From Deltaproteobacteria bacterium (lineage in GTDB: Bacteria; Desulfobacterota; Desulfuromonadia; Desulfuromonadales; BM103): 64,000 bases of DNA. The DNA lies in the NCBI GenBank assembly GCA_019313185.1, contig JAFDBS010000140.1, positions 377 through 64,376 on the forward strand, written 5' to 3'. Made by a program: the position numbers and the translations under genes. Below the pieces are notes generated by a model, which searched no databases, was not told where the DNA came from, and saw only the letters and a program-made list of their open reading frames with translations. Shown here in pieces: positions 4,412 to 28,776 of this stretch (position 1 is the stretch's first letter; each line of letters opens with the position of its first letter).

Positions 4412-4971
4412 AGGACTGTCGAGCCAGCTCTGGTGATGAAATGGGTGACAACATATGCTTAATATTTTATAGCGTAACAAAAATAACGATTTCTGCGCCG
4501 CGAATTATGAAGTTTATCGAAGTGGATAGCGCTTTTCATGGCGAATCACCATCCAGGGCCAGCCGTTAAAGAGTTCAGCGGATCACGGCGTATGTCGCTG
4601 AGCTGAATTCACTCGGATGGAGAGGGGTTAACAATACAACGGCCACACGGTTTCTTAAATCAAATAACTGAATTCAATACAGGGACTTGAAGCTGCATAT
4701 GCGTGGTTTTGCAAATTGCTCCAAATGCCAATTTTTTTGGCTAATAAGGAATGGGATCATTCTCCGGTTGAAAAGGTCGTATTGACATAGTTGTCTATTA
4801 TGGCGCTAACTTTTTCAGTTTTGACTTACAGGACTCAGCATATTCGTATAAGATGATATCTCGGTGTTTAGGTTTGATAAACATGAAATCTTTAATTGAA
4901 CTGCTATACTTGTTCACTGTAAAATTAAGCTGACAACTTATCTTTACGATCAATACCCCTTGGAGATGTCA

Positions 4972-9370: not shown

Positions 9371-11754
9371 TCCTGATAAACCGCGTCGCAGTTCTTGGCG
9401 CCGGTGTGATGGGTGCGGCGATTGCTGCTCACCTCGCCAATGCAGGCTTGTCAGTCCTGCTGCTCGACCGGATACCGGACCAGCTCAATGATCTGGAACT
9501 CAAGCAGGGCTTGAACAAGGAAAGCCCGAAATTTCTGAACCGTTTGGCGAGCGAGGCGCTGCAAAACATGTTGAAGGCAAAACCAGCTCCATTTTTTGTG
9601 CCGGACCGGGCCAGGCAAATACAAGTGGGGAATTTCCGGGACGATCTGAAAACCCTGAAAGATTGTGACTGGGTCATTGAGGCCATCATTGAAGACCCGA
9701 AGATAAAGGCGACTCTTTATGCGCAAATTGTCCCCAATCTTGGCATGCGGACGATTTTATCGACCAATACCAGTGGTATCCCTGTAAACCATCTCGCAGA
9801 GCACTTGCCAGACGAGGTCCGCTCACGGTTTCTGCTGACCCATTTTTTCAATCCGCCACGCTATATGCATTTAATCGAGCTTGTGCCGTGTCGAGCCACA
9901 GACCGGACATTGCTCGCGTCCGTTGCTGAATTTCTCGAACTAAGACTCGGCAAAGGTGTGGTGCTTGGCAAAGACACTCCGAACTTTGTCGGCAACAGGA
10001 TCGGGGTGTTTGCACTGTTGAACGCAATCCACCATATGGTTGAACTTGGTATGACTGTGGAACAAGTTGACGCTGTGGCCGGAAAAGCAACGGCACGGCC
10101 CAAAACCGGGGTGTTCCGTACGGCAGACCTGGTCGGCATCGATACCCTGGTTCATGTGGCCCGGCTGTCCTGGAAAGCGTTGTCTGAGGATGAACAGCGC
10201 CAGACCTTCCAGTTGCCTGATTTTCTTGAAAACATGCTGAATTCCGGTATGCACGGCGACAAATCCGGTCACGGATTCTATCGAAAAGAAAAGACCCTGA
10301 ACGGAACAGTTCGCCAAGTCCTGGATTTTAGCAACATGTCGTACCGGACCCTGCGGCAGCCAGAGTTTCCAAGTCTGAAAAAGGCCCTCAAGTTAGATGA
10401 TCCCAAGGAGCGCTTGGCAGCAATGGTCAATGAACATGACCAGGGGGCAGAATTTGCTTGGCGGAATTTACGCGACACAATTATTTACGCGACCAACCGC
10501 ATCCCAGAAATTGCTGACGGTATTGAACAAATTGACCTGGCCATGCGCTGGGGTTTCAATTGGGAAATTGGCCCTTTCGAGATGCTTGACGTCATTGGCG
10601 TGCATGCTTTTGTTCAGCGCGCCAGAAAGGATGGAATCGAAGTGCCGAAATCCTTGGATTCCGTCGAGCGGTTCTACCGGTTTAGTAAGGGGTGTCACCA
10701 AGCGTGGGACTTAAGAACAGGAGCAGGATACCGAGATCTGAAACAGACTCGTGGTGAAGTCAAACTCACTATTTTGAAATCCTTACGGGCTCGGCTTGCG
10801 GGGAATCAGGAGGCATCGATTCATGATTTGAATGATGGGGTGCTGGGCCTGGAGTTTCACTCTAAAATGAATTCGATATCGCCGGAAACCTTGGACATGG
10901 TGATCAAGGCGGTAGAGATTGCCGAACGCCAGGGAGTTGGTCTGGTGATTGGAAACCAGGGAAAGGTTTTTTCCGCAGGCGCTAATCTTGCCGTGCTGCT
11001 TTCCGCCCTGGAAAAGCAAAGCTTTGCCGAGATAGAAAAGATAGTCACAACATTTCAAAACGCTTCCATGACATTGAAATATGCAAAAGTACCGGTTGTT
11101 GTTGCCCCCTTCAATCTCACCCTTGGCGGTGCATGCGAATTTTGCCTTCATGCTGACGCCATCGTGGCGGATGCAGAAACCTACATGGGGTTGGTCGAAG
11201 TGGGTGTCGGTATTCTTCCGGCCGGGGGTGGGTGCAAGGAAATGGCCATCCGAGCTTCTGAACTGGCTGAGCGCAACCAGTCCGATGTGACGTCGTTTTT
11301 ATACAAAGCATTGGAAAATATTGGGATGGCAAAGGTTTCGACTTCCGCAGAGGAACTCTTCGATTTCGGATACATGAGGCATGGTGACAGTATCACTATG
11401 AACACGGCCCGGCTTCTCGGGGATGCAAAAAAGCTGGTTCAGGCGCTCGCTGCAAATTACCGTCCCAAATTGCCGAACCAGACGATCAATGCCGGCGGAG
11501 AAGGGCTTGCTGCCTCAATGCGCACCCGGCTGTGGAACCTCAATCAGGGTGGATTTATTTCTGATCATGATCATCTGATAGCAAGCGCGGTTGTGAAAAT
11601 CCTCTGTGGGGGAGAGGTGCCTGAAGGCACAACTGTTGACGAGTCTTACCTGCTTGAACTGGAGAGAGAAGGGTTTCTGAGCTTGGTTGGGACGCCAAAA
11701 ACCAGGCAACGTATCGAGCATATGCTAAAGACCGGAAAGCCTTTACGCAACTGA
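9367..11754 (+). CDS. Bifunctional 3-hydroxyacyl-CoA dehydrogenase / enoyl-CoA hydratase
   Basis: 795 aa. N-terminal NAD-binding motif VAVLGAGVMGAAIA and a C-terminal crotonase-fold segment (FSAGANL...). The ATGA start overlaps the upstream stop. Confidence 0.9.
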   Translation: MILINRVAVLGAGVMGAAIAAHLANAGLSVLLLDRIPDQLNDLELKQGLNKESPKFLNRLASEALQNMLKAKPAPFFVPDRARQIQVGNFRDDLKTLKDCDWVIEAIIEDPKIKATLYAQIVPNLGMRTILSTNTSGIPVNHLAEHLPDEVRSRFLLTHFFNPPRYMHLIELVPCRATDRTLLASVAEFLELRLGKGVVLGKDTPNFVGNRIGVFALLNAIHHMVELGMTVEQVDAVAGKATARPKTGVFRTADLVGIDTLVHVARLSWKALSEDEQRQTFQLPDFLENMLNSGMHGDKSGHGFYRKEKTLNGTVRQVLDFSNMSYRTLRQPEFPSLKKALKLDDPKERLAAMVNEHDQGAEFAWRNLRDTIIYATNRIPEIADGIEQIDLAMRWGFNWEIGPFEMLDVIGVHAFVQRARKDGIEVPKSLDSVERFYRFSKGCHQAWDLRTGAGYRDLKQTRGEVKLTILKSLRARLAGNQEASIHDLNDGVLGLEFHSKMNSISPETLDMVIKAVEIAERQGVGLVIGNQGKVFSAGANLAVLLSALEKQSFAEIEKIVTTFQNASMTLKYAKVPVVVAPFNLTLGGACEFCLHADAIVADAETYMGLVEVGVGILPAGGGCKEMAIRASELAERNQSDVTSFLYKALENIGMAKVSTSAEELFDFGYMRHGDSITMNTARLLGDAKKLVQALAANYRPKLPNQTINAGGEGLAASMRTRLWNLNQGGFISDHDHLIASAVVKILCGGEVPEGTTVDESYLLELEREGFLSLVGTPKTRQRIEHMLKTGKPLRN

Positions 11755-20774: not shown

Positions 20775-21902
20775 GTGGACTGGCCCTATTACCGTACACT
20801 CTTTCCAGTCACCCAAAGGTCGGCGTTTTTCAACCATGCGGCGATTTCCGCACCATCGACCAAAGTCATTGCTGCCGTTCAAGAGCTGGTCAGCGAGCAA
20901 GCCTATTTGGGCAGCCAAGGGTACCGTTCATGGATGGACCGGGTCGAAACGGTTCGTCAACAAGTCGCGCGATTTGTCTGTGCAGCGCCAAGCGACATCG
21001 CCTTTGTAGCCAATACTTCCACTGGTTTGGGGCTTATGGCCGCTGGGTTTCACTGGACAGCCGGGGACGCCTTGCTGGTCCCGTCACCGGACTTTCCTGC
21101 CAACGTGTACCCATGGCAGAACTTATCCCAGCGTGGTGTCACGATGATAACAGTACCACGTCGCTCAGGTCGCTTGGCTGTCGAGGACTTTGCCAGACTT
21201 GTGACAGATAACGTACGCATGTTGGTTGTCAGCAGCGTTGATTTTGCAACAGGATATGCAGTTGATTTGAATGCAATAGGACGGTTTTGCCGGGAAAACA
21301 ACATCTTTTTTGGTGTTGACGCCATTCAAAGTCTCGGTGTCCGGCCCATCGATGTCGAAAAGGACCAAATCGATTTCGTGGCTGCAGGTGCCCACAAGTG
21401 GCTGCTTGGTCCAATGGGCATTGGCCTGCTCTATATTTCACCCAGGTTGCGACAACATCTGGATCTGCCACTGGTCGGATGGAAAAGTGTGGTTCATGAA
21501 GAAGATTTTCGTTTGCATTTCCAATTGCGGAAAGATGCCGCTGGGTTTGAGCCGGGCACATTGAACGTGGCCGGCATTGTTGGCTTGGGCGCGGCCATAT
21601 CGCTCTTGGAGGAGGTTGGCCTTGTGCAAATCGAGCAGCGCGTGAGCATCCTTTTGGATGAGTTGGCGGACGGTTTGGCGCAGCGGTCTCTGACTTTAAA
21701 AACGCCCTGGCCTGGCAAAGAGCGGTGTGGCATTTTGAGTTTCACAGCGGGCGATGACGTCTTCGCTCTCTCTAAACATCTGAACGAGCAAGGCGTTGTC
21801 TTGGCTCTGAGGGACGGTGGGTTCCGGCTTTCACCCCATTTCTACAATGACGCCGCCGACATCGAACGCTTCTTTTATGCGCTGGATTCGTTTTCAGGGT
21901 GA
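20775..21902 (+). CDS. Class V aminotransferase-fold PLP enzyme (cysteine desulfurase / C-S lyase-like)
   Basis: 375 aa with the PLP-lysine context AAGAHKWLLGPMGIGLLY. GTG start behind GAAGGGAGGG. Its 3' end overlaps the convergent dipeptidase gene by 28 nt. Confidence 0.85.
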   Translation: MDWPYYRTLFPVTQRSAFFNHAAISAPSTKVIAAVQELVSEQAYLGSQGYRSWMDRVETVRQQVARFVCAAPSDIAFVANTSTGLGLMAAGFHWTAGDALLVPSPDFPANVYPWQNLSQRGVTMITVPRRSGRLAVEDFARLVTDNVRMLVVSSVDFATGYAVDLNAIGRFCRENNIFFGVDAIQSLGVRPIDVEKDQIDFVAAGAHKWLLGPMGIGLLYISPRLRQHLDLPLVGWKSVVHEEDFRLHFQLRKDAAGFEPGTLNVAGIVGLGAAISLLEEVGLVQIEQRVSILLDELADGLAQRSLTLKTPWPGKERCGILSFTAGDDVFALSKHLNEQGVVLALRDGGFRLSPHFYNDAADIERFFYALDSFSG

Positions 21903-22942
21903 CCATTCAGGCCGTTTGGGAGTGCCTCAAGGTAAAATTCAAACCAATTGCCGCCAAGCAGAGCGTCAATTTCGGTTTTCGGATAACCGGCCTGAACCAT
22001 AAGCTCCACCAAGTTTTCCAGTTGGGCATGGCTTTCCAGTCCCGAGCAGTTTGTTTCATACCCGCCGAGATCGCTGCCCAGGGCAAAACCCCGGCTGCCC
22101 CACCGCTGTACAAGATAGTCGATTTGTTCGAAAACCTGCCTGCAGTCAGATTTGCCCGAGGTCGACAGCATCTCTGGCGCAAAACTTAAACCAATTACCC
22201 CGTTTCGGGATAACAATACAGAGATTTGGTCATCGCCCAGATTACGCGGTGTGTCGCAAAAATGCCTAAGCCCGGTATGCGAGCAACAAAGATGACCATG
22301 GAAAGAATCAAGCAGTTCCCAAAAACAAACTTCTGCCAAATGAGCGATATCGATAACAAAACCCCGTGTTTCGAGATTGGGTAACAGGGTCTGACAAGCC
22401 TTCGTTAAGCCTTCGGGGTTGACTGTTGTATTGCCGTCAGCGAGGCGATTTCTGCCGACGTGAGTTAAGCCGATAGTATGCACCCCCCAAACCCTGAGAA
22501 AAGAGGTGCCAATGTCCACCAACGCGTCAGCATTTTCTAAAAGAAGCATTTGACTGGTGAAACCTGGGGTGCCCCAAGCTGTTTCCAACTCCTCGCGTGT
22601 CCGAATTGTCGACAGGCTTGCAGTCAGGGCCTGCATAAGGAAAAGTTGCTCAGTCACATGTTGAACTGCCGTTGAACCATTAAATTTATCATTGCAAAAG
22701 ATTGCGCTGTTAAAAATTCTTACCTTGCCATCGCGGAGCGAAGATGGAGAGATGGGACCCCCACCTTTCTTTTCAAAAGGCAGGATGCACTGCTCTTTCA
22801 TAAGAGAATACAAAAGGTCTACGTGGCCGTCAAAACTCGACTGCCATGGGCTGACTTCATCGCTGGGCAAGCAGGTAGTCACTATGGATGCGTTCAAAAT
22901 GGTTTCGGTGGTTGCGGATGGTCCACTGGATGGTGCCCTCAT
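21875..22942 (-). CDS. Membrane-dipeptidase family (peptidase M19) protein
   Basis: M19 hallmarks FDGHVDL, VIDIAHL, CCSHTGLRHFCDTPRNLGDDQI and ALGSDLGG. ATG 22942 overlaps the methyltransferase gene by 86 nt. GTG 22882 and TTG 22870 are in-frame alternative starts. Confidence 0.8.
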   Translation of the reverse strand: MRAPSSGPSATTETILNASIVTTCLPSDEVSPWQSSFDGHVDLLYSLMKEQCILPFEKKGGGPISPSSLRDGKVRIFNSAIFCNDKFNGSTAVQHVTEQLFLMQALTASLSTIRTREELETAWGTPGFTSQMLLLENADALVDIGTSFLRVWGVHTIGLTHVGRNRLADGNTTVNPEGLTKACQTLLPNLETRGFVIDIAHLAEVCFWELLDSFHGHLCCSHTGLRHFCDTPRNLGDDQISVLLSRNGVIGLSFAPEMLSTSGKSDCRQVFEQIDYLVQRWGSRGFALGSDLGGYETNCSGLESHAQLENLVELMVQAGYPKTEIDALLGGNWFEFYLEALPNGLNGHPENESSA

Positions 22943-23780
22943 CCAAAATTTTCCAGGCAGGCAACAATTTGTTTTCCAGTAGATGTCGAACGTTTATGTG
23001 AGCATGCCCGGCAAACGAACCGCTCGGAACGCCTCCAAGCCAAGCAGTTTTGGGGGCGATTTCTGTCGACCACGACCAAGGGTCTGCCACCAACAGCTGT
23101 GCTCTGGTGTCTGATGTGACCCGGTTTAATTCGTCAAGGTGCTTGAGCGGCGCGGGAAGCTTGTCCAGCAAATTCAGAGAGCTGCTGCACTGGAAAACAG
23201 ACTTCGGGAAAGGCAAAGCCAAGGCGTCTGCCAAGACGAACTCGACCCGATTAAGAGGCCAATCATGAGGCAAGCGGACTTCCCGATGTTCGGTCAATTC
23301 GCCTTCCATGATTAAGTCGAACGACAAGCGACCTTCGCGAGTAAGAAGGCGAGCAGTTTGAATGAAGGCATGAGAGCGATCAATGCCAACAGCAAGCTCA
23401 GCGTTGCGCGCTAATTCAAACGTCAGTCTGCCGACTGCGCAACCGGTGTCCAAGGCAACCCCGGACGAGGCATTGAGCATTGATGACCAGCTGAGGTAGG
23501 CTGTATTCTGATCGGGGTCATCGAAAAGATCGGCAAAGTGACTCCAGAGATAAGCGGATACGACCGGTAGCTCTGTATATTTACCGACCAACGCCAAGTC
23601 GCTCTGTGGAAGAAGGCAGGCCATGCCATGGTCAATAGGGTAGTTTTTCCGGCAACCAGGGCAGGTTAATGTGGCCGTGTAAATATCTCCTTGGCGGGTT
23701 TCTTGGATATGTGCCGCTAGCGGGCGCTCTTCCGGTAGACAACCTGGGCAGACCACCAGATCAAGAAGTTGTCTGTGCAT
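22857..23780 (-). CDS. Class I SAM-dependent methyltransferase with N-terminal Trm112-like zinc knuckle
   Basis: The N-terminus LLDLVVCPGC...LTCPGCRKNYPI is a Trm112p-like CxxC/CxxC element. SAM motif I is VALDTGCAVGRL, followed by a post-I acidic loop (GIDRS). Confidence 0.8.
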   Translation of the reverse strand: MHRQLLDLVVCPGCLPEERPLAAHIQETRQGDIYTATLTCPGCRKNYPIDHGMACLLPQSDLALVGKYTELPVVSAYLWSHFADLFDDPDQNTAYLSWSSMLNASSGVALDTGCAVGRLTFELARNAELAVGIDRSHAFIQTARLLTREGRLSFDLIMEGELTEHREVRLPHDWPLNRVEFVLADALALPFPKSVFQCSSSLNLLDKLPAPLKHLDELNRVTSDTRAQLLVADPWSWSTEIAPKTAWLGGVPSGSFAGHAHINVRHLLENKLLPAWKILDEGTIQWTIRNHRNHFERIHSDYLLAQR

Positions 23781-23796
23781 GTGGGGCTGAAGACAA

Positions 23797-23837
23797 GCCC
23801 AAAGAAGGCATCTGCGCCACCAGATGCCCTCTTTGGC
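23797..23837 (-). promoter_or_regulatory. Strong intra-operon stem-loop between the repeat-peptide gene and the methyltransferase gene
   Basis: The minus-strand RNA GCCAAAGAGGGCAUCUG-GUGGCG-CAGAUGCCUUCUUUGGGC forms a stem of about 17 bp with one bulge and one G-U pair. It is followed by UUGUCUUC. It starts 17 nt after the peptide stop and ends 17 nt before the next ATG. Confidence 0.5.
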
Positions 23838-23853
23838 TTTTAAAGGGTGTCAG

Positions 23854-24024
23854 TCAAGCCGGGCCGTGGCAGCTCGGCGCATGGCAACTGGGCGCATGGC
23901 AACTCGGTGCATGGCAACTGGGCGCATGGCAACTCGGTGCATGACAGCTCGGTGCATGACAACTCGGTGCATGACAGCTGGCTAGACTAGAAACTTTTTT
24001 TTCAACTTTACGGGTTTTCAGCAT
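23854..24024 (-). CDS. 56-aa Cys-His pentapeptide-repeat peptide, candidate RiPP precursor
   Basis: ATG at 24024 lies 7 nt after AGGAGG, which directly follows the radical SAM stop codon. Translation: MLKTRKVEKKVSSLA SCHAP x7 SCHGPA. The longer ORF-track version (to 24078) would overlap the upstream gene. Confidence 0.7.
   Translation of the reverse strand: MLKTRKVEKKVSSLASCHAPSCHAPSCHAPSCHAPSCHAPSCHAPSCHAPSCHGPA
23860..23979 (-). repeat. Eight tandem 15-bp units encoding SCHAP/SCHGP
   Basis: Read directly: AGC/T TGT/C CAT GCA/G CCG/C repeated. Units 1-7 differ only at third codon positions. Unit 8 has CAC and GGC. Confidence 0.95.
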
Positions 24025-24037
24025 TGTACTACCTCCT

Positions 24038-26074
24038 TCATTCTGGGGTTTCGGGTTGAACCGCAGCCAAGAGTTCAAGCTGGCTTAATTCTCGTGCTGC
24101 ATCTTGGCACGTGGCCAGAAAATCGGCGTCTGACATTGTTGTTCCGTAAGTTGGCTTCAATTTAACAGCGATCTCTTTTAAGGTGATTGTCCCTGAGCAA
24201 TGCATGAGAAAGTCCCGGCCAAAAGCATTGACCTCAGTCACCTCAAGTTCTGTGTTCTGCTGACGAAATGCTAAATGGCAGGGGCTTTTCGTATAGCTCC
24301 GCACGTAGTTGCCAGCTTTCAGATCGGCAACGATAGATGGCATATCATAGTCAAACGATTCAACAATGACATTTTTGGGTCGCCGTGGCTGCCAATCATG
24401 TAAATGACACAAATCTATATTAACGGGTTTTTCGGATTTGGCAAATTCGGCAACCCCAATGGCGGCACATTCGTACAAGAGAACATTTTCCAGGTGTGAC
24501 CAATCGGTCTCATTTTGCAGACCGCAGAGTTTGGCGCGGGCGAATCCTGGAAAATGTTGAAAACACTTAGCGGCATTCATGTCAGCCATGTGCCCTGCGG
24601 TCCTATCGACCTGTCGTACGAAGCTTAGAAACAGATCGGCAGGGGATTCCATGAACGCTTTGCAAAGCAGCAAAAAGGTTTTGGGAAATAAATTTATGAT
24701 CAGGGGAAAACCATTGGCAAGGCAGGCGAGGTCAGGCAAAGGCAACGCTGGACAGGAAATGTTCCAGAAGCTGCTGAACACCTCCGGATCGCTGTCGATC
24801 ATTTGCTCGTCTTCTGGAAGTCTTGAGCCCTTGTCAAACTCCAAGCCGAGGGCAAAATACGTATCCACGTTTCGCGTAAGACTTTTAAAATATTTTGTGT
24901 GCAGGTCTGTCCCCGGCAAAACGGTCGGAAGTTGCATCAATGGATTACTGTTGCCCTGAATGCCACACGCGAGAGCGAGGAACAATGTCGCATCAACATC
25001 ATCCTTTTGCTCCTCAGGAAACCCGATCACGAAGCTGAGAGTCGGAACCAACCCAACTTCGGTTGTTTCGCGGACGCGTGAGAACAAAATCTTTTGATCG
25101 ACGCGCTTCCGGATAAAGCTCAGCGTGCGAACGGACCCTGAATCAATGCCATAACACATCGATTCGCAACCAGCTTCACGCATAAGGTCAAGAAGTTTCG
25201 CGTCGACAGTGTCGAGACGAGAAATACAGTACCAGGGAGTGGTCTGCAGGCTGGCACTGAGGACGGCTTGGCAAAAGTGCTCAACGTAGCTTCGATCCGC
25301 TGTGAATTGGTCATAGGCCAAAAGGAAGCAATCTGCGCCATGAGCCTCTCGAAGGGTCCTCATTTCTCGAATAATTCTTGATACGGAATACGTGCGTGTC
25401 CGCCGTTTCCAAAAGGCCGCCTCTGAACAGTAAATACAGTCGTGCGGACATCCGCGTCCAACCTCAAGAATGGCAATGCTCCGCGGCAGTTCGCAGGCCT
25501 GGCGATAAAAGTCGAGGGATTGGACCTTGCTGTAATCAGGCAGCGGCAAGGTGTCGAGGTTAGACAGCAGCGGGCGATCAGAGTTATTGAGGACGGCAGC
25601 GCCACGTCGCCAAGATAGCCCCGCGACTTCTTGCAAATTACCTCCCTTGTCCAGGGCTTTCACCAGTTCGGAAAATGTAACCTCTCCCTCGCCCCGTATG
25701 ACCATGTCAACTTGAGGGAACCTTTCGAGCGTTTCTTTCGCAAGAAACGAGGCGTTGTGGCCGCCCACCACAACCTTCAGTTTGGGCCGGACCTCTTTCA
25801 GGCGTTGCGCAATTTGCAGGATCGGCGGATAGGTTACGCATTGAGCGCTGAAAGCGACCAGTTGAGGCTCTGTATCCAAGATCTGCCTGGCAGAATCATG
25901 ATAAATGTCGCGGCCGAATGGCAACGCTCCGGAACGCAGGGCAAGAACCTGATCAAGAATGGTGACCGTGTGCACACAGGGTTCGAGCATCGACGCAAGG
26001 TTTATAAGCCCCAGAGGGGGCAAGTTGTACATGGACTGATGATAAAAAGGTGGAAAAACGAAAGTTATATTCAT
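24038..26074 (-). CDS. B12-binding-domain radical SAM enzyme with C-terminal PqqD-like peptide-recognition segment
   Basis: An N-terminal Rossmann region (KLKVVVGGHNASF...DMVIRGEGE), the cluster motif GCPHDCIYC (nt 25427-25450) and a C-terminal ...EVNAFGRDFLMHCSGTITLKEIAVKL...DADFLATCQDAARELSQLELL. The likely start is MNITFVFPPF at 26074. The upstream in-frame ATG at 26113 is an alternative. Confidence 0.88.
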   Translation of the reverse strand: MNITFVFPPFYHQSMYNLPPLGLINLASMLEPCVHTVTILDQVLALRSGALPFGRDIYHDSARQILDTEPQLVAFSAQCVTYPPILQIAQRLKEVRPKLKVVVGGHNASFLAKETLERFPQVDMVIRGEGEVTFSELVKALDKGGNLQEVAGLSWRRGAAVLNNSDRPLLSNLDTLPLPDYSKVQSLDFYRQACELPRSIAILEVGRGCPHDCIYCSEAAFWKRRTRTYSVSRIIREMRTLREAHGADCFLLAYDQFTADRSYVEHFCQAVLSASLQTTPWYCISRLDTVDAKLLDLMREAGCESMCYGIDSGSVRTLSFIRKRVDQKILFSRVRETTEVGLVPTLSFVIGFPEEQKDDVDATLFLALACGIQGNSNPLMQLPTVLPGTDLHTKYFKSLTRNVDTYFALGLEFDKGSRLPEDEQMIDSDPEVFSSFWNISCPALPLPDLACLANGFPLIINLFPKTFLLLCKAFMESPADLFLSFVRQVDRTAGHMADMNAAKCFQHFPGFARAKLCGLQNETDWSHLENVLLYECAAIGVAEFAKSEKPVNIDLCHLHDWQPRRPKNVIVESFDYDMPSIVADLKAGNYVRSYTKSPCHLAFRQQNTELEVTEVNAFGRDFLMHCSGTITLKEIAVKLKPTYGTTMSDADFLATCQDAARELSQLELLAAVQPETPE

Positions 26075-26344
26075 GTCGACCTGTTTGATGTTGAGCAAAC
26101 CAGGTCTAAGCATAACAAAGACTCATGCGTTCGCCAAGTGGAGAGGCCTGAACAGTCTAGATGCAATGTCGACGATCATCGAAAACGGTGGAACGCGGCA
26201 GGCAAAGCGCCGGATCAAAACTTGGAATTAAATTTGCAAAGACTAAGAAATGTTATGCCGATTGACTGTCCAGGTTTAATAGTATTGTTAAATCGCGGTT
26301 ATTAAATCGTCTTATAACTTATGACTGTTCATTAATCCTTTCAG

Positions 26345-27540: not shown

Positions 27541-27617
<77 letters not shown>

Positions 27618-27723: not shown

Positions 27724-28776
27724 ATGGATATGACCATTTCTCTCGAGCAAGCGCTCACTCTCCGCAGCAAGGGAGCCCTGATGGTTGACGCTCGCAGCCC
27801 TGAGGAATATGCCGAGGCCACCATACCGGGGGCGGTCAATGTCCCAATTCTGAATAACGCCGAGCGCGCTGAGATTGGCACACTGTACAAGCGCGAAGGG
27901 AAATTAATCGCTCGCCGGCGTGGTGTGGAAATTGTTGCGCCAAAAATTCCGGTTTTGGTCGAGAGGGTTGCCGAAATGCGGGCAAGTGAAACCAGCCTTG
28001 CCGTTGTCTTCTGCTGGCGAGGCGGTTTGCGCAGCCGGGCCATGGCCCAGTTTCTAGATTTAGCTGGTATCCCGGCACGGCAGATGGCCGGTGGGCACAA
28101 GCGATTTCGCCAACATGTATTGCGTTTCTTCTCTGAAGCAGAATGGGGCCGGATGATCGTCTTGCGAGGGTTGACCGGTGTTGGCAAGACGAGAATTTTG
28201 AACAATTTGGCCGCAATAGGCCATGAGGTGATTGACCTTGAGGGGTTGGCCAGTCACCGTGGCAGTGCGTTCGGCAACCTTGACTTGCCCGCTCAGCCGA
28301 CACAAAAGATGTTCGAGGCGTTACTGTGGGACCGTCTCCAGCGCATTCCACCGACCAGTCATGTTTTGGTTGAGGGTGAAAGCCGCTGGATCGGCCGTCT
28401 GCAGCTGCCAGTCAGAGTCTACCAAGCCATGCAGCAAGAAACCTGCATTTGGTTGAATGCGTCATTAGCGACCCGGGTGAACAACCTTCTTGAAGACTAC
28501 TCGGCGCTGACTGAGGCCAAAGAGCGATTTGTCGAGCCCATTCAAGCCCTTAAGGAACGTCTCGGCGCACAGGCTGTTGAGGAGCTCCTGTCCTATCTGG
28601 ATAGGGGGGCATGGGACGACCTCGTCAGGGAACTGATGACGCGCTATTATGACCCGCTTTATCGTCATAAACAACCAAAGGAATGCATTGAAGTCAATGT
28701 CGAATCCCTTGGGGCAGGGCTGGATGCCGTGCTCGATGCCGTCACCCAAGTCCTTGCACCAGTTTCGGAACGATGA
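27724..28776 (+). CDS. selU: tRNA 2-selenouridine synthase
   Basis: A rhodanese domain with CWRGGLRS, then the P-loop LRGLTGVGKTRIL. Start at ATG 27724 (MDMTISLEQ), because the longer ORF-track version overlaps the tRNA. Confidence 0.85.
   Translation: MDMTISLEQALTLRSKGALMVDARSPEEYAEATIPGAVNVPILNNAERAEIGTLYKREGKLIARRRGVEIVAPKIPVLVERVAEMRASETSLAVVFCWRGGLRSRAMAQFLDLAGIPARQMAGGHKRFRQHVLRFFSEAEWGRMIVLRGLTGVGKTRILNNLAAIGHEVIDLEGLASHRGSAFGNLDLPAQPTQKMFEALLWDRLQRIPPTSHVLVEGESRWIGRLQLPVRVYQAMQQETCIWLNASLATRVNNLLEDYSALTEAKERFVEPIQALKERLGAQAVEELLSYLDRGAWDDLVRELMTRYYDPLYRHKQPKECIEVNVESLGAGLDAVLDAVTQVLAPVSER

Follow-up and report, generated by a model that had tools for sequence, protein, structure and literature searches.

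In a 64,000-nucleotide stretch of DNA from a Deltaproteobacteria bacterium (contig JAFDBS010000140.1 of GenBank assembly GCA_019313185.1; the whole stretch is called the window here), a small gene for a peptide of tandem Cys-His units lies within a five-gene cluster at positions 20775-26113. On the minus strand, the gene for a cobalamin (B12)-binding radical S-adenosylmethionine (SAM) enzyme is followed by those for the repeat peptide, a SAM methyltransferase and an M19 family metallo-dipeptidase, and a gene for a class V pyridoxal 5'-phosphate (PLP) enzyme on the plus strand converges on the dipeptidase gene, with which it shares 28 nt (21875-21902; Table 1). An earlier note on this DNA had placed the five genes and the 28-nt overlap in just this way, and had proposed, as a speculation, that they form a ribosomal, anaerobic route to a thiohistidine-type small molecule. 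Our analysis supports this proposal through the homology of the methyltransferase to OvsM, OvoA-C and OvoM, the loss of the desulfurase cysteine loop from the PLP enzyme and the occurrence of selenocysteine (Sec)-His in place of Cys-His in relatives. On balance, we lean towards reading the operon as a peptide-templated, oxygen-independent route to such a compound, with N-methyl-5-thiohistidine (ovothiol A, or a compound close to it) as the likeliest product.

Gene cluster and repeat precursor

The precursor almost certainly starts at the ATG at 24024, because all homologous precursors begin there with the residues MLKxKKVEKK. The peptide therefore has 56 residues and does not overlap the radical SAM gene. 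This start lies 7 nt past the ribosome-binding site GAAGGAGG, which itself overlaps the stop codon of the radical SAM gene. The peptide consists of a 15-residue leader, MLKTRKVEKKVSSLA, followed by eight units (SCHAP seven times, then SCHGP), a final Ala and the stop codon; at the nucleotide level, Tandem Repeats Finder reports a period of 15 nt, 7.1 copies and an 88% match. The eight Cys-His units described in the earlier note are present as stated, and its choice of a longer, TTG-initiated open reading frame (ORF) of 74 residues is corrected to the shorter peptide. A long hairpin between the stop codon of the precursor and the start codon of the methyltransferase, visible as an inverted repeat with the arms AAAGCCAAAGAGGGCATCTG ... 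CAGATGCC(T)TCTTTGGGCTT, may be an attenuator or an element of mRNA stability.

Table 1. Positions of the cluster features in the window and of methyltransferase-molybdopterin enzyme gene pairs in the loci named
Feature	Position	Strand	Evidence
Class V PLP enzyme, 375 aa	20775-21902	+	Aminotran_5 1.2e-50
M19 family metallo-dipeptidase, 355 aa	21875-22942	-	Peptidase_M19 3.4e-49
SAM methyltransferase, 307 aa, N-terminal Trm112-like zinc ribbon	22857-23780	-	TIGR04345 ovoA_Cterm 3.6e-29
Long hairpin between precursor stop codon and methyltransferase start codon	23795-23840	-	inverted repeat visible
Precursor peptide, 56 aa (stop codon 23854-23856)	23854-24024	-	sequence reading
Eight 15-nt repeat units encoding x-Cys-His-Ala/Gly-Pro	23860-23979	-	codon reading and Tandem Repeats Finder
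B12-binding radical SAM enzyme, 691 aa	24038-26113	-	PF02310 1.4e-17, PF04055 4.3e-16
Methyltransferase-molybdopterin pair, L081	5883-8980
Methyltransferase-molybdopterin pair, L082	4801-7866
Methyltransferase-molybdopterin pair, L086	8020-11097
Methyltransferase-molybdopterin pair, L087	8032-11037
Methyltransferase-molybdopterin pair, L088	5801-8984
Methyltransferase-molybdopterin pair, L090	5791-8972
Methyltransferase-molybdopterin pair, L091	5823-8998

A scan of species-representative genomes for relatives of the radical SAM enzyme yielded 125 loci, of which 80 were kept for neighbourhood counts. These 80 belong mostly to Thermodesulfobacteriota or 'delta proteobacteria' (Desulfuromonadales, Geobacteraceae, Desulfobacterales, Syntrophobacterales and Desulfovibrionales), and the carriers include the cultured Geobacter hydrogenophilus DSM 13691 (Geobacteraceae). 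At about 57 of the 80 loci, the radical SAM gene is directly followed downstream by a gene for a precursor of the form (xCH[A/G/S]P)5-12 with the shared leader MLKxKKVEKK, and at 12 further loci by one for a selenocysteine-type precursor; the arrangement of enzyme and precursor is thus beyond chance. Within the unit, the C, H and P of homologous precursors are invariant, and position x can be taken by A, S, T, G, V or other residues. At one locus, L057, the length of the spacer between units varies as well, and therefore what is selected is the unit Cys-His-x-Pro rather than a five-residue period. Membership in the 'Cys-every-fifth' family CefA (NF038108) was considered and rejected, as the model gives 14-19 bits (cut-off 30) for the window peptide and for the precursors of five of seven relatives and no match for the other two, and as the period is not essential at L057.

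Enzymes of the cluster

The one strong family match of the methyltransferase is TIGR04345, the C-terminal 4-mercaptohistidine N-methyltransferase of OvoA. The alignment covers positions 5-236 of the 242 in the model and reaches 102 bits (cut-off 170); the next family follows only at 1e-3. The solved structures that match best are OvsM, a 5-selenohistidine N-methyltransferase (9bxh, 7.9e-24), OvoA (8khq, 2.5e-23) and OvoM, a 5-thiohistidine N-methyltransferase (9bxl, 1.5e-16), with the next at 1.8e-6. As judged from its sequence, the enzyme is a homolog of the 5-thio/selenohistidine N-pi-methyltransferases OvsM, OvoA-C and OvoM, of which OvsM methylates 5-selenohistidine and not plain histidine (bioRxiv 10.1101/2024.04.10.588772). 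This kinship favours the 5-thio, N-pi-methyl pattern of ovothiol over that of ergothioneine, and no EgtD-type enzyme was found in the cluster; of the ergothioneine- or ovothiol-like product envisaged in the earlier note, it is therefore the ovothiol-like form that we retain.

The methyltransferase also occurs in a second genomic setting. In a sample of 401 genomes of the phylum, comprising 12 that carry the radical SAM gene and 389 others, and with ortholog thresholds that we set ourselves, full-length orthologs of the methyltransferase were found in 38 genomes, including all 12 of the radical SAM-positive ones. The loci of 11 of the 26 remaining genomes were inspected, and in seven of these the methyltransferase gene adjoins that of a molybdopterin enzyme of 685-736 residues (Table 1), whose best structural relative is acetylene hydratase (1.4e-83). 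The same kinship has been described for the module with which MES, an anaerobic ergothioneine synthase, inserts sulfur (PMC9516567); the molybdopterin enzyme of these loci has no fused desulfurase, and none of the seven loci encodes a Cys-His repeat peptide (at least three CH dipeptides). We regard the pair as a second candidate for the oxygen-free formation of an N-methyl-thiohistidine, and we found no paper that describes it. The methyltransferases of the radical SAM and molybdopterin contexts are intermixed within a single clade of a maximum-likelihood tree, in which the methyltransferase domains of OvoA form a distant outgroup. The simplest reading is that the family would act on free thiohistidine, whichever enzyme has supplied it. 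The genome from which the window comes, which is 86% complete, contains neither an OvoA (best TIGR04344 score 24.4 bits, cut-off 400) nor a MES-like ortholog, which leaves the co-operonic radical SAM enzyme and peptide as the only visible suppliers of a substrate to the methyltransferase.

The radical SAM enzyme belongs to a large group, with at least 599 homologs at E<=1e-20, among which the 120 best matches listed share at least 51% identity with it. Its best NCBIfam match is ApyD (NF050148) at 276.4 bits, and as the equivalog cut-off of that model is 750 bits we do not assign the enzyme to the ApyD family; nor could its chemistry be assigned from the solved relatives AprD4, TokK, CysS and OxsB, which are too remote. 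Three homologs that are 55-59% identical (P0010, P0020 and P0044) have a PqqD domain (PF05402) at residues 613-668, one of them above the cut-off of the model (24.8 versus 23.4 bits), and a profile search of the tail of the window enzyme itself detected none. From the homologs, it is probable that the window enzyme carries a C-terminal PqqD-like peptide-recognition tail of the type termed RRE, for recognition element of peptides that are ribosomally synthesized and modified post-translationally (RiPPs). At about 10 Geobacteraceae-type loci (among them L023, L025, L027, L029, L035, L042, L045, L048 and L053), a 184-residue gene of the nitroreductase family divergently adjoins the radical SAM gene on its upstream side.

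The PLP enzyme matches the SufS and EgtE models below their cut-offs (70 bits for EgtE), with C-DES also among the matches, and scores below every desulfurase cut-off. An alignment of the window protein and 15 of its orthologs with Escherichia coli SufS shows that the PLP lysine (K226), D200, Q203 and both substrate-binding arginines (R359 and R379) are retained, and that every one of these proteins lacks the 15-residue loop with the persulfide-forming Cys364. The enzyme therefore cannot serve as a SufS-type sulfur donor, and we rejected the possibility that it is a sulfur-donating cysteine desulfurase such as that of MES. It is predicted to be of the lyase type, and we propose that it is a beta C-S/C-Se lyase, resembling the Cys-less lyases of the SufS/CsdA fold family. 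The earlier note had likened its fold to those of EgtE, OvoB and GliI; of these three, only EgtE is a class V enzyme, and OvoB and GliI belong to other classes of fold type I. When the PLP gene is clustered, which is the case in 17 of the 54 loci that have at least 5 kb of downstream sequence, it is always convergent. OvoB has been described as a beta-lyase of broad specificity (PMC12631010), and so a dedicated copy of the PLP lyase need not be universal.

No signal peptide is evident in the M19 dipeptidase. If its ORF is read from the first ATG, it shares 86 nt (22857-22942) with the 3' end of the methyltransferase gene; the alignments of its homologs begin only near residue 31-37, and the true start may therefore be further downstream.

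Selenocysteine precursors and gene co-occurrence

At 12 loci, mainly of Syntrophobacterales, the precursor has a single unit in which the Cys codon is replaced by an in-frame TGA, with the layout MLQVKEIEKKIL...YVVPx-TGA-His-Ala-Pro-TESPVRR. L057 and L073 have a TGA-type precursor in addition to a Cys-repeat one, which brings the TGA loci to at least 14. The His-Ala-Pro codons past the TGA differ among loci only synonymously, and translation therefore proceeds beyond it. A 7-bp hairpin, AUCUCCG-GUN-CGGAGAU, is conserved 14 nt downstream of the TGA; as the hairpin is retained at L059, where a TAA cuts off the tail of the peptide, it is the RNA and not the peptide tail that is conserved. SelB was found at 369-382 bits (cut-off 242) in all five TGA-type genomes tested. 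The relatives, in short, show what characterizes bacterial selenoprotein genes, namely a TGA with coding conservation beyond it, a hairpin and SelB. Rfam recognized no selenocysteine insertion sequence (SECIS) or other RNA family in three Sec-type loci, the single-sequence folding z-scores of 54-nt stretches of Sec-type loci were not significant, and the stem, being identical in sequence across the loci read, offers no covariation, so that the assignment rests on the conservation of the codons and of the hairpin and on SelB. On these grounds, we read the TGA-type precursors as Sec-His-Ala-Pro.

To our knowledge, Sec substitutes for Cys only at positions where the chalcogen has a function. The interchange of Sec and Cys marks a working chalcogen, which argues that sulfur or selenium persists into the product, where it appears to matter. 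At L057 and L073, the multi-unit Cys-His precursor (positions 10082 and 10115, respectively) is followed about 500 nt further on by the single-unit Sec-His precursor with its SECIS-like hairpin (10552 and 10609), and an organism with both precursors could make both a sulfur and a selenium product.

Several loci show irregular forms of these precursors. At L017 (about 4450-4520), the radical SAM frame runs into ...PPESPVRR-stop, the Sec-type leader and unit seem to have been deleted and a remnant of the hairpin is kept; as no intact radical SAM ORF was found there in the ORF pass either, this copy is probably decaying. In-frame TGA codons before HGPA, without the ESPVRR hairpin, occur twice at L030 (10118-10290) and once, in the last unit, at L061 (10070-10180), and L030 also has Tyr or Asn at expected Cys or His positions; these TGA codons may represent selenocysteine or else decay by nonsense mutation. 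In the window itself, a gene for the tRNA 2-selenouridine synthase MnmH/SelU (27724-28776, plus strand; 366 bits, cut-off 241) lies 1.6 kb from the start of the radical SAM gene, past a CBS-domain gene, with a tRNA-Met gene at 27541-27617 (minus strand). The organism therefore uses selenium, although its own precursor encodes Cys; this neighbour does not recur in related loci.

The earlier note had made the co-occurrence of the dipeptidase and the PLP enzyme with the radical SAM-peptide pair a test of its proposal, and both co-occur with the pair in the 401-genome sample. The M19 ortholog is present in all 12 radical SAM-positive genomes (in three of them on another contig than the radical SAM gene) and in 1 of the 389 others, which makes 13 of 401 in total; this single case falls among the 26 genomes that have the methyltransferase and lack the radical SAM enzyme, and the remaining 363 have none. 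The M19 gene adjoins the radical SAM gene in 41 of the 54 loci. The coupling of the two is nearly exclusive genome-wide, albeit with few independent events. The single other genome, G034, has its M19 gene divergent beside a methyltransferase-molybdopterin pair (L088, 5801-10178), where the dipeptidase may also serve the molybdopterin pathway, or a radical SAM copy may have escaped assembly.

The PLP ortholog is present in 8 of the 12 radical SAM-positive genomes and in 53 of the 389 others. Among the latter, 52 belong to the 363 genomes that lack both the methyltransferase and the radical SAM enzyme, and only one, a weak match, to the 26 that have the methyltransferase alone, a distribution that fits a lyase needed only by the peptide route. 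The genes that recur in the clusters encode the M19 dipeptidase, the methyltransferase, the PLP enzyme, an M3 oligopeptidase F (eight loci), the nitroreductase and an ABC ATPase. A leader and a core of variable copy number stand beside the maturase, as in RRE-dependent radical SAM RiPP systems, but no exporter or leader peptidase recurs across the 80 neighbourhoods, and there is therefore no sign that the product is secreted.

A proposed peptide-templated pathway and its alternatives

We propose that the ribosome would first supply the 56-residue precursor with its eight Cys-His units, the conserved leader of which would be bound by the radical SAM enzyme through its RRE tail. In each unit, the enzyme would then form a thioether between the sulfur of Cys and the imidazole ring of the His that follows it. 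Housekeeping or cluster-encoded peptidases, such as the M3 oligopeptidase F of some relatives, would shorten the modified peptide, and the dedicated M19 enzyme would open the crosslinked Cys-His dipeptide to give S-(histidyl)cysteine. From this intermediate, the Cys-less PLP enzyme or a general beta-lyase would strip the cysteinyl carbons as pyruvate and ammonia, leaving thiohistidine, the imidazole nitrogen of which would be methylated by the OvoM/OvsM-like methyltransferase. Up to eight molecules could be obtained from one precursor, and the Sec-His precursors of relatives would lead to the selenium analogue, an ovoselenol-like compound. In a variant of this scheme, the sulfur would migrate directly and leave Ala or dehydroalanine behind, in which case no lyase would be needed.

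Most elements of this scheme have counterparts in known systems. As in the pathways to ovothiol A and ovoselenol, the scheme involves a methyltransferase homologous to OvsM, OvoA-C and OvoM, a putative PLP beta-lyase, a final N-methylation of the imidazole and both sulfur and selenium versions, and the proposed S-(histidyl)cysteine is the reduced form of the OvoA product. In contrast to those pathways, in which a non-heme-iron sulfoxide synthase forms the C-S bond from free His and Cys with O2, the operon genome has no such synthase; its His and Cys are neighbours in a ribosomal peptide, a B12-dependent radical SAM enzyme is the candidate for bond formation, and the selenium of the relatives would come from encoded selenocysteine and not from a selenosugar as in the ovoselenol route. 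Oxygen-free formation of a thio-imidazole in strict anaerobes, as proposed here, is known from EanB and MES (PMC9516567), and the methyltransferase family of the operon also adjoins acetylene-hydratase-like molybdopterin enzymes, the kind to which MES is related. However, EanB and MES sulfurize free trimethylhistidine at C2 with persulfide sulfur, and MES combines a metallopterin module with a cysteine desulfurase, whereas the operon genome lacks an ortholog of it and the PLP enzyme of the operon lacks the SufS-type persulfide loop.

The use of a sacrificial ribosomal peptide with a radical SAM enzyme that a PqqD-type RRE (a probable one in the operon) directs to its substrate would be shared with the pathways to pyrroloquinoline quinone (PQQ; PqqA/E/D/F), mycofactocin (MftA/B/C/E) and 3-thiaglutamate (the pearlins), in which dedicated peptidases likewise free an intracellular product of the size of an amino acid; in the operon, it is the M19 dipeptidase that co-occurs with the radical SAM-peptide pair. 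The operon differs from these pathways in that its radical SAM enzyme is of the B12 type and not of the SPASM type, in having 5-12 repeated cores in place of one, in the residues and the chemistry concerned (Cys/Sec-His) and in its peptidase. ApyD, the best-scoring named family, is the RRE-fused B12-dependent radical SAM enzyme of aminopyruvatide biosynthesis, which methylates the C-beta of Tyr in a GYLYD motif (PMC10635010); the order of its domains (B12-binding, radical SAM, RRE) is that predicted for the operon enzyme, but its precursors and partner enzymes are unrelated to those of the operon. Selenobiotic thio(seleno)oxazole RiPPs (SbtA/SbtM) are radical SAM-modified peptides from the same groups of bacteria, and the position modified in them holds Sec in some and Cys in others, as here, but SbtM is of the SPASM type, the precursor motif is another one and the dipeptidase, lyase and OvoM-like methyltransferase are absent. 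ThnL of thienamycin biosynthesis, which is said to act on carbapenam and pantetheine, reportedly sets a precedent, in that it is cobalamin-dependent, belongs to the radical SAM enzymes and makes a C-S bond rather than transferring a methyl group; its substrates, unlike that of the operon enzyme, are small molecules, and it is likened to the operon enzyme by description and not by sequence.

Several observations weigh against a thiohistidine product. The nearest named family of the radical SAM enzyme, ApyD, is a Tyr C-beta methyltransferase, and most characterized B12-dependent radical SAM enzymes methylate. The operon methyltransferase scores below the TIGR04345 cut-off (102 versus 170 bits), and its clade lies so far from the OvoA domains that its substrate could differ. 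In the 54 loci, the PLP gene is adjacent in only 17 and the methyltransferase gene in only 25, and 53 genomes that lack the radical SAM enzyme also have a member of the PLP family. An endopeptidase that would release the units is not conserved across all clusters. In addition, the radical SAM-positive genomes represent just six families and cannot be counted as independent of each other, and many of them are incomplete metagenome-assembled genomes.

Part of this evidence would suit a pathway that ends with a methylated repeat peptide, in which the radical SAM enzyme would be a C-methyltransferase acting on carbons of His, Cys, Ala or Pro, the second methyltransferase would N-methylate peptidyl His, the peptide would bind metals or serve in redox reactions and the dipeptidase and PLP enzyme would be concerned with turnover or only loosely linked. 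C-methylation by the radical SAM enzyme had been named as an alternative in the earlier note. The ApyD match, itself a RiPP C-methylase with an RRE, points in this direction, as do the presence of the methylases TokK and CysS among the few solved relatives, the suitability of repeats rich in Cys, His and Sec as metal ligands and the many clusters that lack the methyltransferase and PLP genes. We nevertheless consider it rather unlikely, since it leaves unexplained the near-exclusive coupling of the M19 and radical SAM genes, the kinship of the methyltransferase to enzymes of 5-chalcogen-histidines and its pairing with a MES-like enzyme where no repeat peptide was found, and no conserved exporter accompanies the cluster. 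If, instead, the crosslinked peptide were itself the final product, a string of small Cys-His or Sec-His thioether rings in a new cyclophane-like RiPP that M19 trims or recycles, the evidence for a chalcogen-imidazole bond would apply equally, and many radical SAM RiPPs (streptide, darobactin and the triceptides) do retain their crosslinks when mature. This we regard as improbable, because a lyase-type PLP enzyme, with its alpha-carboxylate-binding Arg intact, and a dipeptidase act on free amino acids and dipeptides and not on peptides, because the methyltransferase family also works where there is no repeat peptide and because neither a leader peptidase nor a transporter is conserved.

The cluster could also be viewed as a store or carrier of sulfur or selenium, in which peptidases free dipeptides, the PLP enzyme mobilizes the chalcogen and the radical SAM enzyme and methyltransferase have regulatory or protective roles. 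The PLP enzyme does fall within the fold family of SufS and selenocysteine lyase, the M19 enzyme would free the dipeptides and the tRNA 2-selenouridine synthase gene lies only 1.6 kb away in the window. However, the PLP enzyme lacks the persulfide/perselenide Cys loop that is needed to pass on sulfur or selenium, an RRE-bearing B12-dependent radical SAM enzyme and an OvoM-like methyltransferase would have no role, and the selenouridine synthase gene is not a recurrent neighbour in related loci; we therefore regard a store as very improbable.

The thiohistidine pathway, if it exists as proposed, would draw on building blocks and on a sacrificial-peptide logic (that of PQQ, mycofactocin and the pearlins) that are known, and its combination of parts, its chemistry and its selenocysteine donor would be new. 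We know of no route to 5-chalcogen histidines that does not require O2, by way of the iron enzymes OvoA and OvsA, and of no anaerobic route (EanB, MES) except to the 2-thio compound ergothioneine. In the full-text literature searched, we found no description of such a system and no oxygen-independent route to 5-thiohistidine, and the bond formers reported in the 2024-2026 literature on thio- and seleno-imidazoles are only iron sulfoxide synthases, EanB and MES. The operon may thus represent a fourth way of attaching sulfur or selenium to the ring of histidine, one based on a radical SAM enzyme and, for the first time, ribosomal, in which an encoded repeat is crosslinked and then dismantled to compounds of the ovothiol and ovoselenol types; we put this forward tentatively, as a possibility with somewhat less than even chances.

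If this is true, the formation of a bond from a thiyl or selenyl group to an imidazole would be a new type of reaction for B12-dependent radical SAM enzymes, and the pathway would be a multi-copy addition to the few metabolites known to be derived from peptides (PQQ, mycofactocin and 3-thiaglutamate). In the relatives with Sec-type precursors, it would be the first case in which co-translationally inserted selenocysteine feeds a selenium-containing small molecule, a UGA codon thereby serving as the selenium donor. As the cluster is present in cultured Geobacter species, the question can be put to a direct test. Ovothiol and ovoselenol rank with the most powerful thiol and selenol antioxidants in nature, and the pathway would account for how such compounds could be made by strictly anaerobic bacteria that reduce sulfate or metals.

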